The notes beneath the pieces are model-generated. The model saw only the letters and a program-made list of their open reading frames with translations. It did no database searches and was not told the DNA's origin. From the NCBI RefSeq assembly GCF_013122565.1, contig NZ_CP053258.1: a stretch of DNA of 64,000 nucleotides; one strand, written 5' to 3'. The DNA comes from Escherichia coli (lineage in GTDB: Bacteria > Pseudomonadota > Gammaproteobacteria > Enterobacterales > Enterobacteriaceae). Positions 3,038 to 56,647 of this stretch are shown here, piece by piece. The first letter of the stretch is position 1. The number at the start of each line of letters is the position of its first letter. Position numbers and translations under genes: made by a program.

Positions 3038-3994
3038 GTGTCAGCTATGAAAAATGTTCTGGTCACCGTCCCCAGCTTTTCAGCACGCTGTGTTTCCGCC
3101 AGCAAGTTGCTAAGAGAGAATAATTTTAACCTTATTATTAAGAATAATGTGGAGCATCTGCTTAAATCAGAATCCACTGCATTACGAGAATCTATTTGCG
3201 CGGTCATCGCCGGAAAAGATTGTTACCAGGCGGACACGCTATCATTGCTGCCTGGTGTGAGAATAATATCGAGATTCGGGACGGGGATAGATAATATTGA
3301 TCTTCGTGCAGCACAACAATCCGGTATTGTAGTCAATAATGCGGTTGGGATTAATTCAAATGCTGTCGCGGAATTTATCATTGGACTTATCTTCGCGAGC
3401 ATGAGAAATATTCCTGGCAGCTATCATGCGATGCAAAATGGCTACTGGGGTGAGTCGCATGGCTATGAATTACAAGGCAAACGGATTGGCCTGGTTGGCT
3501 ACGGCAATATAGGTAAAACCCTGGCAAAAAGGTTATCCGGTTTTGATGTTGAGCTTTTAGCTTATGACAAACAACCCGATTATCAGGTTGCTGACAAAGT
3601 TGGAGTTCAGTTTGTATCAATTGAAGATATCTTTATGCAGTCGCATGTCATCATTGTTCTTTTGCCTTTTTCTCCTGAGCTGGAGAACTTCATTAGTCAT
3701 AAATATTTGTCGATGATGCGCAATGGTGCTCTAATCATCAATGCCGCAAGGGGAAAGTTGCTGGATGAGGGCGCTTTACTACAGGTGATTGAAGAACGAA
3801 ATGTGTTTGCGGCGCTGGATGTGTTTAGCTCTGAACCGTTGGCGCAATTTAGCCCACTGCTACATGCCAAAAATATCATTACAACGCCGCATATTGCGGC
3901 CGCCACCGTTGAGTCATACCAGCAAACCGGTACACACGTTGCCCAGTCGATAATTGATTACTTCGCAGGAAGGGAGATAAAAAACGTGTTGTGA
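3038..3994 (+). CDS. D-isomer-specific 2-hydroxyacid dehydrogenase, NAD-binding
   Basis: 318 aa. Rossmann GxGxxG (GLVGYGNIGKTLAKRL) and the TPHIAAAT catalytic-region motif. Track start is GTG at 3038; an ATG at 3047 is an alternative. Confidence 0.8.
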   Translation: MSAMKNVLVTVPSFSARCVSASKLLRENNFNLIIKNNVEHLLKSESTALRESICAVIAGKDCYQADTLSLLPGVRIISRFGTGIDNIDLRAAQQSGIVVNNAVGINSNAVAEFIIGLIFASMRNIPGSYHAMQNGYWGESHGYELQGKRIGLVGYGNIGKTLAKRLSGFDVELLAYDKQPDYQVADKVGVQFVSIEDIFMQSHVIIVLLPFSPELENFISHKYLSMMRNGALIINAARGKLLDEGALLQVIEERNVFAALDVFSSEPLAQFSPLLHAKNIITTPHIAAATVESYQQTGTHVAQSIIDYFAGREIKNVL

Positions 3995-4020
3995 GTTCAG
4001 CGAACGAAGTTTTTAAATAC

Positions 4021-4055
4021 AAAAAAACCGCAATTTGTGGAACACATTGCGGTTT
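4021..4055 (-). terminator. Rho-independent terminator downstream of tRNA-fMet
   Basis: Inverted repeat aaaccgcaat / attgcggttt; on the minus strand it is followed by a 7-T run. Lies just past the tRNA 3' end. Confidence 0.6.
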
Positions 4056-4072
4056 ATCAGCATTCTAAGTAT

Positions 4073-4149
<77 letters not shown>

Positions 4150-4357
4150 TCCGTGGATGCGCACTATACTCCGCTCGCGTTTTCATGCAACCTTTTTTTT
4201 ACCCCGATCACGGTTCTGGCATGATTTTGAACAAAAACAAATCACTAAAGCCTATTTTTTGTGCAAAATTTGCGTCAGGGAGAGGCTGCTCATTTCATTA
4301 AACGCGGCGGTTTGTTATCTTCGTTGCGCCTTATTTTTTAACCTGAAGAAGAGAACA

Positions 4358-5455
4358 ATGAAAGGACGTTGGGTAAAGTACCTTCTTATGGGCACGGTTG
4401 TGGCAATGCTTGCCGCCTGCTCTTCCAAACCAACCGATCGCGGACAGCAATATAAAGACGGGAAATTTACCCAGCCTTTCTCTCTGGTGAACCAGCCAGA
4501 TGCCGTTGGCGCGCCGATTAACGCCGGTGATTTTGCTGAGCAAATTAACCATATCCGTAATTCGTCACCGCGTCTGTATGGCAACCAGAGTAATGTTTAT
4601 AACGCGGTGCAAGAGTGGCTGCGCGCAGGCGGTGATACCCGCAATATGCGCCAGTTCGGCATTGATGCCTGGCAGATGGAAGGTGCCGACAACTATGGTA
4701 ACGTGCAGTTTACAGGCTATTACACGCCGGTAATTCAGGCGCGCCATACCCGCCAGGGCGAGTTCCAGTATCCGATTTACCGTATGCCGCCAAAACGTGG
4801 TCGTCTGCCGTCTCGTGCGGAGATCTACGCGGGGGCATTGAGCGATAAATACATCCTCGCTTACAGCAACTCTCTGATGGATAATTTCATTATGGATGTG
4901 CAGGGTAGTGGGTATATCGACTTTGGTGATGGCAGCCCCCTTAACTTTTTCAGCTATGCAGGGAAAAACGGTCATGCCTATCGCAGCATTGGTAAGGTGC
5001 TGATCGACCGTGGCGAAGTGAAAAAAGAAGATATGTCGATGCAAGCGATTCGTCACTGGGGCGAAACACACAGTGAAGCCGAGGTTCGCGAGCTGCTGGA
5101 ACAGAACCCGTCTTTTGTCTTCTTTAAACCGCAATCTTTTGCACCGGTGAAAGGGGCAAGTGCGGTGCCGCTGGTTGGTCGTGCTTCTGTTGCCTCTGAT
5201 CGTTCCATTATTCCGCCAGGTACTACCTTGCTGGCAGAAGTGCCGTTACTGGATAATAACGGCAAATTTAATGGTCAGTACGAACTGCGTCTGATGGTGG
5301 CGCTGGATGTCGGTGGCGCAATCAAAGGCCAACACTTCGATATCTATCAAGGGATCGGGCCGGAAGCCGGACACCGTGCAGGTTGGTACAACCACTATGG
5401 ACGGGTTTGGGTACTGAAAACGGCTCCGGGCGCAGGTAACGTCTTTAGCGGCTGA
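4358..5455 (+). CDS. mltA: Membrane-bound lytic murein transglycosylase A
   Basis: Internal ATG of ORF 4037..5455 with SD aagaagaga. Lipoprotein signal MKGRWVKYLLMGTVVAMLAACSS. 365 aa as in K-12. The longer track ORF overlaps the tRNA and is rejected. Confidence 0.93.
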   Translation: MKGRWVKYLLMGTVVAMLAACSSKPTDRGQQYKDGKFTQPFSLVNQPDAVGAPINAGDFAEQINHIRNSSPRLYGNQSNVYNAVQEWLRAGGDTRNMRQFGIDAWQMEGADNYGNVQFTGYYTPVIQARHTRQGEFQYPIYRMPPKRGRLPSRAEIYAGALSDKYILAYSNSLMDNFIMDVQGSGYIDFGDGSPLNFFSYAGKNGHAYRSIGKVLIDRGEVKKEDMSMQAIRHWGETHSEAEVRELLEQNPSFVFFKPQSFAPVKGASAVPLVGRASVASDRSIIPPGTTLLAEVPLLDNNGKFNGQYELRLMVALDVGGAIKGQHFDIYQGIGPEAGHRAGWYNHYGRVWVLKTAPGAGNVFSG

Positions 5456-5542
5456 TGTGATATTCTGTATGCCGTTTTGACGGATATGACAGGGTGAGGG
5501 GTAACCTTACATCCTGATTATTGACTAAGTGCGTGTTGTTCA

Positions 5543-5641
5543 TGCCGGATGCGGCGTGAACGCCTTATCCGGCCTACAAATCATGCAAATCCAAAATATT
5601 GCAGGAGTTATGTAGGCCTGATAAGCGTAGCGCATCAGGCA
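5543..5641. repeat. REP/BIME palindromic elements (two REP units)
   Basis: gccggatgcggcgtgaacgccttatccggcctaca and tgtaggcctgataagcgtagcgcatcaggca, typical enterobacterial REP consensus. Confidence 0.8.
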
Positions 5642-5652
5642 ATTATGCGTTT

Positions 5653-5680
5653 AGGGTGAGGGATAACCTCACCCTTTTTA
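5653..5680 (+). terminator. Terminator-like hairpin plus T-run
   Basis: agggtgagg-gataa-cctcaccct followed by ttttt, ending 14 nt before the tcdA start. Confidence 0.5.
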
Positions 5681-5693
5681 ATTCAGAGGTGCT

Positions 5694-6500
5694 ATGTCTG
5701 TTGTAATTAGTGATGCCTGGCGTCAGCGTTTTGGCGGCACTGCGCGTCTGTATGGTGAAAAAGCGTTGCAACTGTTTGCTGACGCGCATATTTGTGTGGT
5801 CGGTATTGGCGGTGTCGGTTCCTGGGCGGCGGAAGCGCTGGCGCGCACGGGGATTGGCGCAATCACGCTTATCGATATGGATGATGTGTGCGTCACCAAT
5901 ACCAATCGGCAAATTCATGCCCTGCGCGATAACGTTGGGCTGGCAAAAGCGGAAGTTATGGCGGAGCGTATTCGCCAGATTAACCCGGAGTGCCGTGTAA
6001 CGGTGGTGGATGATTTCGTGACGCCGGATAACGTAGCGCAGTATATGAGCGTGGGTTATTCGTACGTGATTGATGCCATTGATAGTGTACGGCCCAAAGC
6101 GGCGCTGATTGCTTATTGTCGGCGCAATAAAATCCCACTGGTCACAACCGGTGGCGCGGGTGGGCAGATTGATCCGACGCAGATTCAGGTTACCGATCTG
6201 GCGAAAACGATTCAGGACCCGCTGGCGGCGAAGTTGCGTGAGCGCCTGAAAAGCGATTTTGGCATAGTGAAAAACAGTAAAGGTAAGCTCGGCGTGGATT
6301 GCGTGTTCTCTACCGAAGCATTGGTGTACCCGCAGTCAGACGGTACGGTGTGTGCTATGAAAGCCACGGCAGAAGGGCCGAAGCGGATGGATTGTGCATC
6401 TGGATTTGGCGCGGCGACGATGGTGACCGCCACCTTTGGTTTTGTTGCGGTTTCTCATGCGCTGAAGAAGATGATGGCGAAAGCGGCGCGTCAGGGGTAA
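5694..6500 (+). CDS. tcdA: tRNA threonylcarbamoyladenosine dehydratase (E1-like, CsdL)
   Basis: 268 aa. ThiF/MoeB-type fold with GIGGVGSW nucleotide-binding motif. Synteny with csdA/csdE. Confidence 0.93.
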   Translation: MSVVISDAWRQRFGGTARLYGEKALQLFADAHICVVGIGGVGSWAAEALARTGIGAITLIDMDDVCVTNTNRQIHALRDNVGLAKAEVMAERIRQINPECRVTVVDDFVTPDNVAQYMSVGYSYVIDAIDSVRPKAALIAYCRRNKIPLVTTGGAGGQIDPTQIQVTDLAKTIQDPLAAKLRERLKSDFGIVKNSKGKLGVDCVFSTEALVYPQSDGTVCAMKATAEGPKRMDCASGFGAATMVTATFGFVAVSHALKKMMAKAARQG

Positions 6501-6506
6501 ACAATC

Positions 6507-6542
6507 AGGTCGGATGCGACGCGAACGTCTTATCCGACCTGG
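6507..6542. repeat. REP-like palindrome between convergent tcdA and csdE
   Basis: aggtcggatgcgacgcgaacgtcttatccgacctgg; probable bidirectional terminator or REP. Confidence 0.6.
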
Positions 6543-6550
6543 TTCTGTGC

Positions 6551-6994
6551 TTAAACCTGCTTCGCCGCAGCGATAATCGCCTCGCTTAACGCATTCAACC
6601 CCTGGCTGCGTGAGGCGCTAAGGTGCGCACGCAATCCCAGCTCATCAAACAATGCCAGCGGCGACTGTGCCTGCAATTCGGCGGCGGTTTTCCCCTCAAC
6701 GGCAGTCAACAACACCGCCAGCAGGCCGCGCACAATGCGCCCTTCACTGTCGCCAAAGAAGTGCATTTTACCGTTTTCAGCCACGGTATATCCGAGCCAG
6801 ACGCGGTTTTCGCATCCGGCAATCTCTTTAGCCTGCGCTTTTAACTCGTCTGGCAAAGCCGGAAGCTGTTTCCCCAGCATGATCAACTGGCGATATTTAT
6901 CTTCCCATTGCGTCAACGGTGCGAAGGTATTGCGTAACGTTTCTGCGGTTACGGTTGTGCCGAACGGATGTCCGGCGAATTGCGGGTTCGTCAT
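6551..6994 (-). CDS. csdE: Sulfur acceptor protein CsdE (SufE-like)
   Basis: 147 aa, matches K-12 CsdE length and N-terminus [12 protein letters not shown]. Confidence 0.93.
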
Positions 6995-45189: not shown

Positions 45190-45481
45190 TATAAATTTCT
45201 CATTAAATCTGGATAAATAAATTGACGGCGGCATCGGTAATTTGAGATTCGTTATCATTAAAAAAGAATACAGAAAAATAAATATAAATTTGGTGAATGT
45301 TTTTGACATGATTAAATCCATTTTCTTTATTTTCTTCTGACATAATACGTTACTCCCTTTAATTCTTAACGATATGTTTCGCATTTTTCTTGAAACCTGC
45401 CTGTAACAGAATGTTAATAAGACATGATTGTTGTGGCAGGATCTGCAATAATTAACAATTATCCACTTCACAGAGAATGCT

Positions 45482-46153
45482 ATGCAGTACCCGATTAACG
45501 AGATGTTCCAGACCCTGCAAGGTGAGGGTTACTTTACCGGCGTCCCCGCCATTTTTATTCGTTTACAGGGATGCCCGGTTGGCTGTGCCTGGTGCGACAC
45601 CAAACACACCTGGGAAAAGCTTGAGGATCGGGAAGTCTCCCTTTTCAGCATTCTGGCGAAGACCAAAGAGAGTGATAAGTGGGGGGCGGCGAGCAGTGAA
45701 GACTTGCTGGCTGTCATTGGTCGCCAGGGATATACCGCGCGGCATGTGGTGATTACGGGGGGTGAGCCTTGCATTCATGATTTGCTGCCACTGACTGACC
45801 TGCTCGAAAAGAACGGTTTTAGCTGCCAGATCGAAACCAGTGGTACTCATGAAGTACGCTGTACACCGAATACCTGGGTTACCGTATCGCCAAAGCTGAA
45901 CATGCGCGGCGGCTATGAAGTGTTGTCACAGGCACTGGAGCGAGCCAACGAAATCAAGCATCCAGTGGGACGCGTACGTGATATTGAAGCACTGGATGAA
46001 CTTTTGGCGACGCTGACCGATGATAAACCGCGAGTCATTGCACTGCAGCCGATTAGCCAAAAGGATGATGCCACACGTTTGTGCATTGAAACCTGCATTG
46101 CGCGTAATTGGCGTTTGTCGATGCAAACCCATAAATATTTAAATATTGCCTGA
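45482..46153 (+). CDS. queE: 7-carboxy-7-deazaguanine synthase QueE (radical SAM)
   Basis: 223 aa, radical-SAM Cys motif [10 protein letters not shown]. Confidence 0.95.
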
Positions 46154-46490
46154 TTAAACATTTATAAGTGTTATAAATGGGTGGAACCTGTAAAGAATTC
46201 CACTCATTTATATTGTTTGTCGCCTCTGAAAACCCCTCTTTTTTGCCCATCCTTGACTAATCATTATCATTCTCTACAAATTCTGTGGCGTTAATTTTTC
46301 GCTGGAGTGAAAATTATTGCGGTAAAGTTTGGTAGATTTTAGTTTGAATAGAGTTATTTTAAATATTTATCTTTTTAATCAATGGATTAAGTGCTCTTTA
46401 ACATAATGGATGTGTTGTTTGTGTGATCCTGTAAAGTTGTTAGATTGTGACTGGCTTAAAAAATCATTAATTAATAATAGGTTATGTTTA
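46154..46490 (+). promoter_or_regulatory. AT-rich CRISPR leader for the mini-array
   Basis: About 340 bp of AT-rich sequence immediately 5' of the first repeat. The distal repeat is degenerate, so this is the leader side. Confidence 0.55.
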
Positions 46491-46702
46491 GAGTTCCCCG
46501 CGCCAGCGGGGATAAACCGGCGATTATAGCGGACTTTCAAGAGAACAGTCTGAGTTCCCCGCGCCAGCGGGGATAAACCGTGGAAAATCACCGACAATAT
46601 TCGACATGGAGAGAGTTCCCCGCGCCAGCGAGGATAAACCGTTATCGGTCATCAACTATAGCGCGTATTTACTAAGTTCCCCGTTCCAACACGAATAATC
46701 CG
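46491..46702 (+). CRISPR. Type I-E CRISPR mini-array (CRISPR2-like): 3 intact repeats, 1 degenerate terminal repeat, 3 spacers of 32 bp
   Basis: Repeats gagttccccgcgccagcggggataaaccg at 46491, 46552 and 46613 (third has one mismatch). Degenerate repeat 46674..46702. Phase confirmed by the antisense artefact ORF 46379..46597. Confidence 0.95.
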
Positions 46703-46767
46703 ATAATATCGACGATACCAACCTAATATTATCAAATGTTAAAGGTTCTAATTTAAGAGGAAATTTA

Positions 46768-47031
46768 ATGTCTACGTTAATGGAAAAAGAATCTCTCCTG
46801 AATGGCGTGAGTCAAAATATTGCATTTTTATCAAATGTATCTGAAATGGTTTACAACTCTCAGAATGAAGAGTTGCAGTATGAAATATATGAGCTGGTGA
46901 GTTATAAAGATTATCTATACTCAACAGACCATGAACTTGTTGATTTTCAAGAGGGAGTATTACGATTTCAACAAATTAGAACAAAATACAGGCAAGAGCT
47001 AAAAGAACTCGGTTATCCTGTAGGTAATTAA
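46768..47031 (+). CDS. Hypothetical protein (87 aa, acidic, AT-rich codon usage)
   Basis: Intact ORF with SD aagagg 9 nt upstream. No homolog I recognise. Occupies the position where K-12 has ygcE..ygcN. Confidence 0.5.
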   Translation: MSTLMEKESLLNGVSQNIAFLSNVSEMVYNSQNEELQYEIYELVSYKDYLYSTDHELVDFQEGVLRFQQIRTKYRQELKELGYPVGN

Positions 47032-47393
47032 GAAATATTGTCTTGATGGTGGGGAAACGTAATTTTTTATATTTTAAATATTAGATTAAAACAATAAATT
47101 AATATCATACTTTTATTTTATTCTCGAAAATGCCTAATTTCATTAAATACGTTGTCCTGTAAATGTAAACCGGGCATTTTTCCGCCCGGTCTCCCTCGAT
47201 TACGCTTCTGAGCAGGTCTCGAGCGAATTCACACTCTCCCGTTCAACTTGCATCACCAGTTGGTTAAATTCAGTCAAACTCTCGCTCATAATAATAATGT
47301 CGCAGTCGTCTTCCATGTCATGCCCCAGATATCCAGAACACAACACCCTAACATAGCGTTACTTAAGGGAAATTGACCGCCGACACACTCTTA

Positions 47394-47759
47394 TCATTCG
47401 CCGCGATAGATACAACCTGCGGTGCAGGTTTCTTTCACCATCACTGCACTTAATAGCGGCACAACGGGTTTAACCTGATCCCAAATCCATTTTGCTAAAA
47501 CTTCGCTGGTTGGGTTTTCCAGACCTGGAATATCATTGAGATAATGGTGATCGAGGCGCTCATAAGTTGGCTTAAACGCCGCTTTCAGTTCAGCGAAATC
47601 GATAATCCAGCCCGTATGCGGATCGACTTCCCCGGTAATTTCCAGTCGCACCATAAAGGAATGCCCGTGCAGGCGACCACATTTATGTCCTTCCGGGACG
47701 TGTGGTAAGCGGTGAGCGGCTTCGAAGGTGAAATCTTTAAATAACGTGGTGGACATCAT
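47394..47759 (-). CDS. queD: 6-carboxy-5,6,7,8-tetrahydropterin synthase QueD
   Basis: 121 aa from [20 protein letters not shown]. The track ORF starts 28 codons upstream at a TTG. Confidence 0.93.
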
Positions 47760-48074
47760 AATTTCTCTACATGACGATAAAACCGCCGTAGAGTACCGGA
47801 AAGGCTGTTTTTTCGCATTATCTAAAACGACTTTGTTGCGCAAAATCGCTGATTTATCTTAATGATTGGCTAAATTCATTTGTTTTTCATTAGGTTGGTT
47901 AATCTATTTTGTTGTTAAAGACTATTGCTAAAACAGGTTAGTCGATTTGGTTATTAGTTATCGCTATCCCGTCTTTAATCCACACCGTTCACCCCGTTAA
48001 CCTTACCTTCTCTTCTGTTTTATGGGCGCTGACAGGGCGCAGAAACAGCTTTGCTTACTGGAACATAACGACGC

Positions 48075-49874
48075 ATGACGACACAGGTCCCACCTTCCGC
48101 GTTGCTTCCGTTGAACCCGGAGCAACTGGCACGCCTTCAGGCGGCCACGACCGATTTAACTCCCACCCAGCTTGCCTGGGTTTCTGGCTATTTCTGGGGC
48201 GTGCTCAATCAGCAGCCTGCTGCGCTTGCAGCGACGCCAGCGCCAGCCGCAGAAATGCCGGGTATAACTATTATCTCCGCCTCGCAAACTGGCAATGCGC
48301 GCCGGGTTGCTGAAGCATTACGCGATGATTTATTGACGGCAAAACTGAACGTTAAGCTGGTGAACGCGGGCGACTATAAATTCAAACAAATCGCCAGCGA
48401 AAAACTGCTCATCGTAGTGACGTCAACGCAAGGGGAAGGGGAACCGCCGGAAGAAGCCGTCGCGCTGCATAAGTTCCTGTTCTCCAAAAAAGCGCCAAAG
48501 CTGGAAAACACCGCGTTTGCCGTGTTTAGCCTCGGCGATAGCTCTTATGAATTTTTCTGCCAGTCCGGGAAAGATTTCGACAGCAAGCTGGCGGAACTGG
48601 GCGGTGAACGCCTGCTCGACCGTGTCGACGCCGACGTTGAATACCAGGCTGCTGCCAGCGAGTGGCGCGCCCGCGTGGTTGATGCGCTTAAATCGCGTGC
48701 GCCTGTCGCGGCACCTTCGCAATCCGTCTCTACTGGCGCGGTAAATGAAATCCACGCCAGCCCGTACAGCAAAGACGCGCCGCTGGTGGCGAGCCTCTCT
48801 GTTAACCAGAAAATTACCGGGCGTAACTCTGAAAAAGACGTTCGCCATATCGAAATTGACTTAGGTGACTCGGGCCTGCGTTACCAGCCGGGTGACGCGC
48901 TGGGCGTCTGGTATCAGAACGATCCGGCACTGGTGAAAGAACTTGTCGAACTGCTGTGGCTGAAAGGCGATGAACCTGTCACCGTCGAGGGCAAAACGTT
49001 GCCTCTGAACGAAGCGCTACAGTGGCACTTCGAACTGACCGTCAACACCGCCAACATTGTTGAGAATTACGCCACGCTTACCCGCAGTGAAACACTGCTG
49101 CCGCTGGTGGGCGATAAAGCGAAGTTACAGCATTACGCCGCGACCACGCCGATTGTCGACATGGTGCGTTTCTCTCCGGCGCAACTGGATGCCGAAGCGC
49201 TGATTAATCTGCTGCGTCCGCTGACCCCGCGCCTGTATTCCATCGCCTCCTCGCAGGCGGAAGTCGAGAACGAAGTACACGTCACCGTTGGTGTGGTGCG
49301 TTACGACGTGGAAGGCCGCGCCCGTGCCGGTGGTGCCTCCAGCTTCCTCGCGGATCGTGTGGAAGAAGAGGGCGAAGTCCGCGTATTTATCGAACATAAC
49401 GATAACTTCCGTTTGCCTGCTAACCCGGAAACCCCGGTGATTATGATTGGCCCCGGTACCGGCATCGCGCCGTTCCGTGCCTTTATGCAGCAACGCGCCG
49501 CCGACGAAGCGCCGGGTAAAAACTGGCTGTTCTTTGGCAACCCGCACTTTACGGAAGATTTCCTCTACCAGGTGGAGTGGCAGCGCTACGTCAAAGAGGG
49601 CGTGCTGACGCGTATCGATCTTGCCTGGTCGCGCGACCAAAAAGAAAAAGTTTATGTACAAGACAAACTGCGCGAACAGGGCGCGGAGCTGTGGCGCTGG
49701 ATCAATGACGGTGCCCACATTTATGTCTGCGGCGACGCTAATCGCATGGCGAAAGACGTTGAGCAGGCACTTCTGGAAGTGATTGCCGAATTTGGTGGCA
49801 TGGACACCGAAGCGGCGGATGAATTTTTAAGTGAGCTGCGCGTAGAGCGCCGTTATCAGCGAGATGTCTACTAA
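48075..49874 (+). CDS. cysJ: Sulfite reductase [NADPH] flavoprotein alpha subunit
   Basis: 599 aa. Confidence 0.97.
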
Positions 49875-53048: not shown

Positions 53049-54392
53049 GTGACTTTCTTTGATTTCTGGGGAAAAACCCGACGTGGCGAGAAAGAAGGGG
53101 GCGACGGCTATCACCTTCTTTGCTGGCATTCGCTGGATGTGGCCGCGATGGGCTATTTAATGGTTAAAAGAAATTGCTTCGGGCTGGCTGACTATTTTCG
53201 TCAATTAGGGATTTCTGACAAGGAACAGGCAGCTCAATTTTTCGCCTGGTTGCTGTGCTGGCACGATATTGGAAAATTTGCCCGCTCTTTTCAACAACTT
53301 TACCTGCCCCCTGAATTCAAGATTCAGGAAGGTGCCAGAAAAAATTACGAAAAAATCTCTCATTCAACGCTGGGCTACTGGTTGTGGAATCATTATTTAA
53401 GTGAATGTCAGGAGTTACTTCCTTCATCTTCGCTCTCTCCGCGCAAACTTAGGCGAGTGATAGAAATGTGGATGCCCGTGACGACAGGGCATCATGGTCG
53501 GCCCCCTGATCGTATGGATGAATTGGATAATTTTCTGCCTGAAGACAAAGCTGCAGCACGAGATTTTCTCCTTGAAATCAAACCACTGTTTCCGCTCATA
53601 GAGATCCCCGCATTCTGGGATGATGATGAGGGCATTGAACTTATAAAACACCTTTCCTGGTATATCTCTGCAACCGTCGTGCTCGCAGACTGGACGGGTT
53701 CGTCAACGCGATTTTTTCCACGCGTCGCACACCCAATGGATATTAAAGGTTACTGGCAGAAAACTTTAGTTCAGGCTCAAAATGCCTTAACCGTCTTTCC
53801 TCTAAAAGCAAAAGTCGCGCCTTTCACCGGAATTAATACGCTGTTTCCTTTTATTGAGAATCCGACACCGTTACAGCAAAAGGTGCTGGATCTGGATATC
53901 AGCCAGCCAGGGCCACAGTTATTTATTCTGGAAGATGTGACTGGCGCAGGTAAAACGGAAGCGGCGCTTATCCTGGCGCACAGGTTGATGGCTGCGGGTA
54001 AAGCGCAGGGTTTGTTTTTTGGCCTGCCAACAATGGCAACGGCCAATGCCATGTATGATCGGCTCGTCAAAACCTGGCTTTCTTTCTATTCGCCAGAATC
54101 TCGCCCCAGCCTGGTGCTGGCACACAGTGCCCGCACATTAATGGACCGCTTTAATGAATCACTCTGGTCCGGTGATTTAATCGGGTCAGAAGAACCGGAT
54201 GAACAAGCTTTCAGCCAGGGTTGTGCGGCCTGGTTTGCCGACAGTAACAAGAAGGCGTTGCTGGCTGAAATTGGCGTCGGCACCCTGGATCAGGCGATGA
54301 TGGCAGTGATGCCGTTTAAACATAATAATCTGCGGCTTCTGGGGCTGAGTAACAAAATCGTGTTCCCCGCGCCAGCGGGGATAAACCGATGA
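53049..54392 (+). pseudogene. cas3: Truncated cas3 (type I-E; HD nuclease domain and start of helicase domain only), fused to the CRISPR array
   Basis: 447-aa ORF with a GTG start. HD motif WHDIGKF and Walker A TGAGKTEAA. Collinear with the N-terminal half of K-12 Cas3 (888 aa, from memory). The frame runs through CRISPR repeat 1 (...NKIV|FPAPAGINR) and stops in spacer 1. Confidence 0.88.
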
Positions 54393-56647
54393 ATATTTGC
54401 GAATATTCGGCAGAAAGCGGGTGTTCCCCGCGCCAGCGGGGATAAACCGAGGTTGCGGCACAAATTGAGGTTGTCGCAAATGTGTTCCCCGCGCCAGCGG
54501 GGATAAACCGCCGACGCAGCAGCGGCAGCAGCGGCAGCAGCGGTGTTCCCCGCGCCAGCGGGGATAAACCGTGGATCAGTGCCGCGTTCTCTCTCCGTGT
54601 AATGTGTTCCCCGCGCCAGCGGGGATAAACCGATCGAGACGGGTACGCGTAAAGCCGAGCTGGCGTGTTCCCCGCGCCAGCGGGGATAAACCGCGATCGG
54701 TTAATTCTTCTACCTGCCTTTGCAGGTGTTCCCCGCGCCAGCGGGGATAAACCGCCCGCAATGCATTCGGGCAGTTCCTTGCCGGGGTGTTCCCCGCGCC
54801 AGCGGGGATAAACCGGAGATTGAGCCAGACGCCCGCCAGGTGTTACTGTGTTCCCCGCGCCAGCGGGGATAAACCGGAAGTAACACACCCAACCCAGGTT
54901 GCGCCAGAGTGTTCCCCGCGCCAGCGGGGATAAACCGCCTGTTTGAGCAGGCGCGAATGAACCGGACCAGTGTTCCCCGCGCCAGCGGGGATAAACCGTC
55001 AGGTAAGCCAGTGTTAGGGGCAATATAGCAGTGTTCCCCGCGCCAGCGGGGATAAACCGTCATCGGCTCGTTATTTGTAGCCAGCACTACGGTGTTCCCC
55101 GCGCCAGCGGGGATAAACCGCTTTATCAGATGGTAAAGGTGAATCAATATGAGTGTTCCCCGCGCCAGCGGGGATAAACCGATACCCCAGCGTTTCGTTA
55201 TATGACGGAAGATGTGTTCCCCGCGCCAGCGGGGATAAACCGTGCAACCAGGACGGCAGGACGCATCGCCAGATGTGTTCCCCGCGCCAGCGGGGATAAA
55301 CCGCACGTTATTATCCGATATTCACCGATAAGCGTGTGTTCCCCGCGCCAGCGGGGATAAACCGTCTGGGCGTAAACAGTCGGATAAATCGCGGGTGTGT
55401 TCCCCGCGCCAGCGGGGATAAACCGGCGGCGTGTGGGGTAACAATCAGGGAGAGAAAGTGTTCCCCGCGCCAGCGGGGATAAACCGGATAAATACAGTAT
55501 ATTCCCGCGCTCTGCTGGCGTGTTCCCCGCGCCAGCGGGGATAAACCGTAGATTTTGTCCGGCTCAGGTGCGCCGATGGTGTGTTCCCCGCGCCAGCGGG
55601 GATAAACCGATCGAGTACAACAAAAAATATACTGAGTGAGTGTGTTCCCCGCGCCAGCGGGGATAAACCGCTGTTTGCTCCTGCTGCTCATTTAGTGATT
55701 TAGTGTTCCCCGCGCCAGCGGGGATAAACCGCCTGTTCTTTTTTAGTCAACTTAACCATGCTCGTGTTCCCCGCGCCAGCGGGGATAAACCGTCTTTTTC
55801 GAGACTTGCAGCAACGCTCTGAAAGTGTTCCCCGCGCCAGCGGGGATAAACCGATCGAGTAGTTTTGAGGGTTGGTGAATTCAGGGTGTTCCCCGCGCCA
55901 GCGGGGATAAACCGCTTAATAAATGGACTTAAGCGCCCAGTATTGGGTGTTCCCCGCGCCAGCGGGGATAAACCGGGGAGGGCGAGCCGCCGTAGGTGCG
56001 GTGAGGGGTGTTCCCCGCGCCAGCGGGGATAAACCGACGCAGAAACTGGTTGAAATAGTTTACGGTGAGTGTTCCCCGCGCCAGCGGGGATAAACCGGCA
56101 GTAAATTATTTGACCTCGTTGATAATCCCGTGTTCCCCGCGCCAGCGGGGATAAACCGGTGGCGGTGTGATTGTGGGACTTATTGCCATCGTGTTCCCCG
56201 CGCCAGCGGGGATAAACCGGGCCTTTTCAGCAGATTAACCGCCGCGATTGCGTGTTCCCCGCGCCAGCGGGGATAAACCGAGAGATTTATATTCTTTCAA
56301 ACCGGATTATATCGTGTTCCCCGCGCCAGCGGGGATAAACCGCTTCAAGAATTTTTAAACGCTGGCTTCAAAATGTGTTCCCCGCGCCAGCGGGGATAAA
56401 CCGTCCCACGCGTGCCAGATGGCGCGTTTGATGGCGTGTTCCCCGCGCCAGCGGGGATAAACCGATGATAACGGCAAAGGGTACGCTACGTACAACGTGT
56501 TCCCCGCGCCAGCGGGGTTAAACTGTGATCCAGTGAGTACCGATCCGGGAACAACCGGTGTTCCTCGCATCAGCGGGGATAAACCGGGTGCACTGGATGC
56601 GATGATGGATATCACTTGGCGTTCCCCCGCCCCTGCGGTAGAACTCC
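54360..56647 (+). CRISPR. Type I-E CRISPR array: 37 repeat-spacer units plus a highly degenerate terminal repeat; no leader, no adjacent cas operon
   Basis: 29-bp repeat gtgttccccgcgccagcggggataaaccg with period 61. Spacers are 32 bp except one of 33 bp (55487..55519). Repeat phase verified against the antisense artefact ORFs ([10 protein letters not shown] / VYPRWRGEH / GLSPLARGT). Degenerate repeats at 56497, 56558 and 56619 mark the leader-distal end, next to iap. Confidence 0.97.

Follow-up and report, generated by a model that had tools for sequence, protein, structure and literature searches.

The AT-rich DNA between the CRISPR-II mini-array and queD in the analysed stretch of 64,000 nucleotides (the window) carries a gene, ORF87, whose 87-residue product is very probably a homolog of the antitoxin domain of the E. 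coli zeta toxin EzeT. The best explanation of the locus, which we regard as likely, is that this gene belongs to the EzeT/zeta toxin-antitoxin family as an orphan ("solo") antitoxin gene. A preliminary description of this DNA could not place the protein in any family; it shares homology with both the EzeT antitoxin domain and the antitoxins of two-gene zeta modules, and the same homology bears out the idea, voiced there as speculation, of a toxin-antitoxin component.

Layout of the queE-queD interval

The gene queE (45482..46153, + strand; sequence reading and ORF listing) is followed by a CRISPR leader of 340 bp (46154-46493; 95% identity to K-12) and by the CRISPR-II mini-array (46489..46702, + strand), which has four type I-E repeats at a 61-nt spacing, the last of them degenerate, and three spacers, and whose direction of transcription is towards ORF87. 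The AT-rich block begins exactly where this mini-array stops. ORF87 (46768..47031, + strand, ATG start) begins 65 bp beyond the terminal repeat, on the strand of array transcription, and is preceded by the Shine-Dalgarno sequence AAGAGG (46755..46760, + strand), located 7 nt 5' of the ATG; frame and Shine-Dalgarno sequence are present as first described, with matching coordinates. The gene is followed by an AT-rich spacer (47032..47169) at the position expected for a toxin gene, in which tblastn detected no toxin remnant. Next to it lie a diverged 3' remnant of ygcE (47170..47256, − strand; the last 57 nt of the gene and 30 nt beyond, 76% identity to K-12), the ygcE/ygcN deletion junction defined by comparison with K-12 (47257..47287), and the first 29 nt of ygcN (ATG at 47316) with the ygcN-queD intergenic DNA (47288..47393, − strand; 100% identity to K-12). 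According to the ORF listing, queD (47394..47759, − strand) comes next and cysJ starts at 48075 on the + strand. A large type I-E array (CRISPR2.1, 54362-56586) lies 7 kb downstream of ORF87, and its 37 repeats contrast with the three-spacer mini-array.

The GC content is 0.349 at 46703-47393 and 0.286 at 46703-47170, against 0.503 for the whole window, and amounts to 0.31-0.32 across ORF87 and the DNA immediately 3' of it, in agreement with the AT-rich and atypical composition noted at the outset. Low GC is a trait of the whole ORF87 gene family wherever it was found, with values of 0.36-0.40 compared to 0.54-0.58 for the flanking genes. The term accessory block, which had been applied to the entire region, holds for 46703-47169, a cassette of ~470 bp with 29% GC and without K-12 counterpart, but not for 47170-47256, which is the ygcE remnant, nor for 47288-47393, which is ygcN and intergenic DNA.

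In K-12, ten genes (ygcE, yqcE, ygcW, ygcU, ygcS, ygcR, ygcQ, ygcP, ygcO and ygcN) were counted between the CRISPR-II arrays and queD, in line with the figure of about ten given in the preliminary description. In the window, a deletion fused the ends of ygcE and ygcN in frame, giving a chimeric ORF of 38 aa (47200..47316, − strand) that begins with the start region of ygcN, ends at the stop codon of ygcE and encodes YgcN residues 1-9 (MEDDCDIII, the N-terminus of K-12 YgcN) followed by the diverged YgcE C-terminus. The same junction occurs in seven complete E. coli genomes (e.g. 13E0767, locus L002) and in E. fergusonii CP057565.1, and over the 2.8 kb compared (45400-48200) the draft assembly GCA_052983875.1 shows 100% identity to the window. 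The E. fergusonii locus (L019 5001-5228) has the exact junction together with the cassette, a 100% identical ygcE remnant and an ORF of 75 aa; the ORF87 block may have moved between E. coli and E. fergusonii by recombination.

E. coli RMDEC465 (L001) carries a divergent ORF87 allele, with 84% nucleotide identity, between queE and intact ygcE and yqcE genes. The view that ORF87 stands in the place of ygcE..ygcN does not survive this comparison, and a replacement of the ygc genes by ORF87 was dropped as an explanation for the same reason. Since RMDEC465 has ORF87 beside intact ygcE and yqcE, the loss of the ygcE-ygcN cluster is, on the genomes compared, an event separate from the presence of ORF87, and one that brought queD next to the cassette. 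In Escherichia sp. E1V33 (L007, NZ_RHJI01000004.1), an ORF87 allele similar to that of RMDEC465 is retained beside a different ygc deletion (L007 4335-5433), which leaves ~865 nt from the 3' end of ygcE attached to ~240 nt from the 5' end of ygcN. These end points differ from those in the window, and therefore the ten-gene cluster has, judging from the junctions, been lost independently at least twice in Escherichia. The homology of the window allele to those of RMDEC465 and E1V33 starts at 46748, just 5' of the Shine-Dalgarno sequence, and ORF87 belongs, as far as these alleles tell, to the queE-proximal side of the interval.

Homology of ORF87 to the EzeT antitoxin domain

The first lead was the PHROGs profile phrog_25145, to which ORF87 aligned at positions 1-79 of 308 (E = 9e-20). 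In a tblastn search of PLSDB, ORF87 then matched the N-terminus of a 310-aa ORF adjacent to lysC, in an E. coli chromosome mislabelled as a plasmid. This ORF (L004) contains a Zeta_toxin domain (PF06414) at residues 103-284 (E = 2e-40) and matches PezT (2p5t_B, E = 5e-33); its architecture and its position fit the published locus of EzeT, the E. coli zeta toxin with a cis-acting antitoxin N-terminal domain (PMC4826407, PMC10532202). When the 310-aa EzeT ORF was compared with the window by tblastn, its residues 2-80 aligned to ORF87 with 53% identity (E = 3e-21), and ORF87 was the sole EzeT-like sequence in the 64 kb. Alignment A1, which supports the homology, contains 26 invariant columns. In two large protein searches, EzeT was recovered only as fragments ("zeta toxin, partial") and never at its full length of ~310 aa, despite its presence in about a quarter of E. 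coli genomes, which may be an effect of clustering or of candidate selection.

ORF87 shares with EzeT(1-82) its size and the motifs MATLMEKDxL and YRDYLYST, and the homology extends across the whole domain. Cells that produce EzeTdeltaN83 are rescued when EzeT(1-82) is supplied on a separate vector (PMC4803016), and therefore a free-standing protein of this kind can act in trans. The EzeT domain is, however, fused to its toxin and encoded beside lysC, whereas ORF87 is a separate gene at queE/CRISPR-II with no toxin attached or adjacent, and its C-terminal tail, LGYPVGN, is distinct from EzeT. Neutralisation of the kinase domain in trans is known only for EzeT(1-82) itself; for ORF87 it is a prediction from homology.

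Context look-ups revealed four independent two-gene modules composed of an antitoxin and a zeta-toxin gene. The antitoxin P0011 (L017; 88 aa), with 66% identity to ORF87 and the same LGYP tail, precedes a 245-aa Zeta_toxin gene with an 11-nt overlap and lies among T4SS and Toprim remnants. P0013 (L018; 82 aa, 54% identity to ORF87) has a 266-aa toxin gene downstream and adjoins plasmid leading-region genes, P0025 (L026; 82 aa, 54% identity) has a 232-aa toxin gene downstream and lies in a queE-CRISPR-queD interval, and P0069 (L028; 82 aa, 30% identity) has a 232-aa toxin gene downstream in a Conchiformibius MAG. The toxins of L017 and L018 have 68% identity to the EzeT kinase domain. Like ORF87, these antitoxins (82-88 aa, 30-66% identity) reside in AT-rich cassettes. 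The toxin gene of the modules overlaps the antitoxin gene by 11 nt (in L028 the two are 14 nt apart), whereas 139 bp of non-coding DNA lie downstream of ORF87; the relatives are fused to, or located directly upstream of, a Zeta_toxin (PF06414) kinase, and ORF87 is not.

The best-characterised relative, EzeT, is one polypeptide of 310 aa, of which ORF87 matches no more than the first 80 residues, as would be expected if ORF87 were the truncated N-terminal stump of a disrupted, fused ezeT-like gene. We hold this to be highly improbable, considering that the ORF87 tail ELKELGYPVGN matches the tail of P0011 (ELKKLGYPANEK), which is a complete antitoxin of a two-gene module, and not the EzeT linker, that the same stop codon is used in all full-length solo alleles, and that no kinase-domain remnant lies downstream. 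The caveat in the preliminary description that the ORF could be a fragment of a larger gene is thus right only in an evolutionary sense: ORF87 is a complete antitoxin gene, with the length and LGYP tail of P0011, whose toxin partner is missing.

Exhaustive phmmer and profile searches indicate that the ORF87 family is small and confined to Escherichia and relatives, Pasteurellaceae and Neisseriaceae. In the Conchiformibius MAG (GCA_029984035.1), the complete zeta module (L028 4001-4962) is located between cmk and alaS, while a solo paralog lacking a toxin gene (L016 6001-6246) lies between ispH and a heptosyltransferase-like gene; this arrangement parallels that of ezeT and ORF87 in E. coli. 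In a Neisseria MAG, a solo copy (L014 6001-6240) adjoins thiC. In Pasteurellaceae, small plasmids of 3-13 kb carry a 68-aa member of the family (MATLMEKDSLINGISQ...; L013 3512-3718), which is present on pM2656Tet (tet(B), Actinobacillus pleuropneumoniae; L005 988-1399) and on 14 other small plasmids. On pM2656Tet, the only one of these plasmids whose annotation was examined, the 68-aa gene lies directly 5' of a VbhA-family antitoxin gene, and no toxin gene of either kind is present on the plasmid.

The Pfam scan of ORF87 and 13 family members returned only DUF5800 (E = 0.23) and no match to Epsilon_antitox (PF08998), and the NCBIfam and PADLOC profiles each gave 0 families for ORF87. No match was found by tblastn of ORF87 against 50,697 phage records. 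The family HMM (alignment A2) gave chance matches only against PDB sequences, with no epsilon or PezA at E ≤ 10, and Rfam at E ≤ 1 gave sub-threshold noise only.

The protein is acidic, with a pI of 4.5 and 14 D+E against 7 K+R, and AlphaFold, with eight sequences only, predicts a three-helix bundle (helices 4-27, 34-52 and 60-81; pLDDT 91), which agrees with the acidic and probably helical protein that had been anticipated. The prediction is a small all-helical fold, as in epsilon and PezA. A Foldseek comparison of the model with the PDB gave nothing below E = 0.7, with epsilon (1gvn_C) at rank 28. Seven toxin-linked antitoxins have 14 invariant columns in common; ORF87 retains 11 of these and shows conservative changes (A/S, D/E and R/K) in the remaining three. 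The most conserved element of the family is the near-invariant MATLMEKDxL, with which helix 1 begins. The N-terminal portion of this helix is what obstructs the ATP site of the toxin in epsilon and PezA (PMC5923241).

Orphan state, selection and CRISPR context

No zeta-toxin similarity was detected by tblastn elsewhere in the 64-kb window. Downstream of the solo alleles (window, L001, L002 and L007), a tblastn search for a toxin remnant, with three zeta toxins as queries, yielded no match better than E ~0.5-1. The DNA homology of the closest solo allele, that of RMDEC465 (L001), to the P0011 module (L017) stops exactly at the toxin start codon, and that of the window allele ~5 nt short of it. 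Of a complete type II module, the antitoxin half alone is present. Since no toxin gene or remnant is found downstream or elsewhere in the window, we designate ORF87, with high confidence, as an orphan EzeT-type antitoxin gene.

The length of 87 aa is conserved between ORF87 alleles with nucleotide differences of 15-17%. When the window allele is compared with those of RMDEC465 and E1V33, dS is ~0.7 and dN/dS 0.12-0.16, and the gene is 85% identical between solo alleles compared to 71% for the adjoining non-coding spacer. The constant length and the dN/dS values indicate that ORF87 is not a chance ORF. None of the compared alleles has a toxin gene beside it, their site is the same and the spacers 3' of them are homologous, and therefore much of the divergence arose in the solo state. 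Taken together, these comparisons argue for purifying selection on the orphan gene.

This bears on whether ORF87 is an inert relic, i.e. the leftover half of a toxin-antitoxin module once present here, now functionless, short and harmless. A toxin-antitoxin pair is expected to decay by losing its toxin before its antitoxin, and E. coli has many orphan antitoxins (PMC10790755); in another enterobacterium (L026), a module of this family is intact at queE-queD. The ORF87 block is rare, being present in 7 of 5426 complete E. coli genomes, at one place per genome, with one divergent allele in addition, the E. fergusonii alleles are shortened by premature stops (P0005, 75 aa; P0009, 50 aa), and there is no recognisable promoter. 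The rarity and the shortened alleles look like ongoing decay in some lineages. A relic is nevertheless difficult to reconcile with a dN/dS of 0.12-0.16 over a dS of ~0.7 between solo, spacer-sharing alleles, that is, with much divergence after toxin loss, with the conservation of frame, length and stop codon in E. coli, RMDEC465 and Escherichia sp. E1V33, or with the retention of most residues that are invariant in toxin-linked relatives. We consider this explanation rather unlikely.

The intact L026 module belongs to a metagenomic enterobacterium (LEOS23-1_SAMEA112148933 scaffold_75, 3600-6600, corresponding to ~46150-47400 of the window) with 80-82% identity to the window in queE and in queD-cysJI. 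It occupies the same queE-CRISPR-queD interval as ORF87 but is inverted relative to it; its toxin end faces an array of ~24 type I-E repeats and its antitoxin end a single repeat (3608-3637). This suggests that the ORF87 family has long resided at the trailer end of CRISPR-II. A module embedded in this way in a CRISPR array could stabilise the array. The layout recalls that of K-12, in which two CRISPR-II arrays are separated by 0.5 kb. This AT-rich inter-array spacer of K-12 (L006 1518-2023) occupies the position that corresponds to the ORF87 cassette, and no similarity was found between it and the cassette, the antitoxin or zeta toxins.

Considering that ORF87 encodes a small, acidic protein from the array-transcribed strand, 65 bp past the terminal repeat and with no terminator predicted between them, and that the related L026 module is flanked on both sides by type I-E repeats, we weighed a CRISPR-linked or counter-defence accessory factor (an anti-CRISPR, an Aca-like regulator or an array-associated protein). 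However, the alleles of RMDEC465 and E1V33 lie in loci without any CRISPR repeat, other members of the family adjoin lysC, ggt/ugp or cmk/alaS or are located in a plasmid leading region, neither PADLOC profiles nor the phage records gave a match, and homology and predicted fold indicate a zeta antitoxin. The adjacency to CRISPR is, across the loci surveyed, not constant, and no consistent association with CRISPR-Cas loci or with Acr/Aca-bearing mobile elements was found. An accessory factor of this type therefore seems exceedingly improbable. The anti-CRISPR reading was dropped in view of the repeat-free loci, and the anti-defence role raised in the preliminary description is left without support.

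A scan for promoters and terminators around ORF87 found no sigma-70-like promoter on the + strand and no terminator, with counts not above those of shuffled sequences; EzeT itself has been reported with only a −10 element (PMC4803016). Because ORF87 lies on the same strand as the array and no terminator is predicted, transcription by read-through from the CRISPR leader is conceivable, as a conjecture. According to an earlier survey, the sequences that flank CRISPR-II do not vary significantly (PMC3903273), and for this reason the CRISPR-II variant with the ORF87 cassette seems not to have been described before.

Proposed role of the orphan antitoxin and its significance

In the model that we propose for an orphan zeta-family antitoxin, the ORF87 product is an acidic protein of ~10 kDa, predicted to fold as a three-helix bundle, which corresponds to EzeT(1-82) and resembles in structure the toxin-binding domain of PezA. 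At related loci, such a protein either forms one polypeptide with a zeta-type UDP-N-acetylglucosamine kinase toxin or has its gene immediately 5' of the toxin gene, and it would most likely silence the toxin by pushing the conserved N-terminal helix 1 into the ATP site of the kinase. At the present locus, the adjacent toxin gene may have been lost without trace, or the cassette may have been acquired without it, and the antitoxin gene would have been kept intact under purifying selection despite the absence of the toxin. Any action of ORF87 would have to be in trans. Its candidate targets are EzeT, whose gene lies near lysC in roughly one E. coli genome in four, and zeta toxins arriving on plasmids or integrative elements, against which ORF87 might serve in anti-addiction. 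The analysis shows the homology, the predicted fold, the lack of a toxin gene and the signature of selection, and from these expression, binding and neutralisation are inferred. It is plausible that ORF87 neutralises EzeT, or the zeta toxins of mobile elements, in trans; that it is still functional and selected for this purpose is a possibility to which we give slightly less than even weight.

The distribution of ezeT was examined with a chimeric query, composed of the ORF87 block and 400 bp of the ezeT kinase region, against the 5426 complete E. coli genomes. The ezeT kinase segment was found in ~1434 of them. Five of the seven ORF87 carriers also have ezeT, the second match in these carriers being assigned to ezeT because the ORF87 block alone gave one place per genome; compared with the background of 26%, this corresponds to a binomial P of 0.016, a nominal value that ignores shared ancestry. 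The other two carriers have no ezeT, and therefore EzeT is not an obligatory partner. Nor is cross-neutralisation of EzeT guaranteed, as judged from the identity of only 53% between ORF87 and the EzeT antitoxin domain.

The chromosomal ccd of Erwinia chrysanthemi acts against the ccd of the F plasmid. To our knowledge, no such solo antitoxins have been demonstrated for the zeta family. Orphan antitoxins being common in E. coli, ORF87 is not a new system: it has no cognate toxin alongside, in most carriers it coexists with a related toxin encoded elsewhere (ezeT), and it has relatives on mobile elements, as is the case for the orphan chromosomal antitoxins to which anti-addiction or trans-regulatory roles are attributed (PMC10790755). 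It differs from these in that its role is predicted from the sequence.

A more specific and rather speculative proposal, which we think has only a modest chance of being correct, is that ORF87 is a selectively maintained "spare" antitoxin acting in trans, which either tunes the self-inhibited EzeT encoded at lysC or immunises the cell against post-segregational killing by plasmid- or ICE-borne zeta modules, combined with an old association of the family with the CRISPR-II trailer. If this is true, the intact module between type I-E repeats (L026) could have been an addiction element that stabilised the array, and the presence of a complete module plus a solo paralog in one genome (ezeT and ORF87; L028 and L016) would be a general feature of the family.

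The assignment gives a function-level annotation to a RefSeq "hypothetical" protein without Pfam, NCBIfam or PADLOC coverage. For the typing of E. coli CRISPR loci, it defines a rare CRISPR-II variant, with an antitoxin cassette and loss of ygcE-ygcN, that is common to E. coli and E. fergusonii. Relatives of the EzeT cis-antitoxin domain exist as separate proteins, some in two-gene zeta modules and others as orphans, and these support the published idea that EzeT arose via fusion of a bicistronic operon. They also constitute natural trans-acting variants for studying how EzeT is silenced and released, and ORF87 allows a simple test of the zeta-toxin anti-addiction idea in Gram-negative bacteria.
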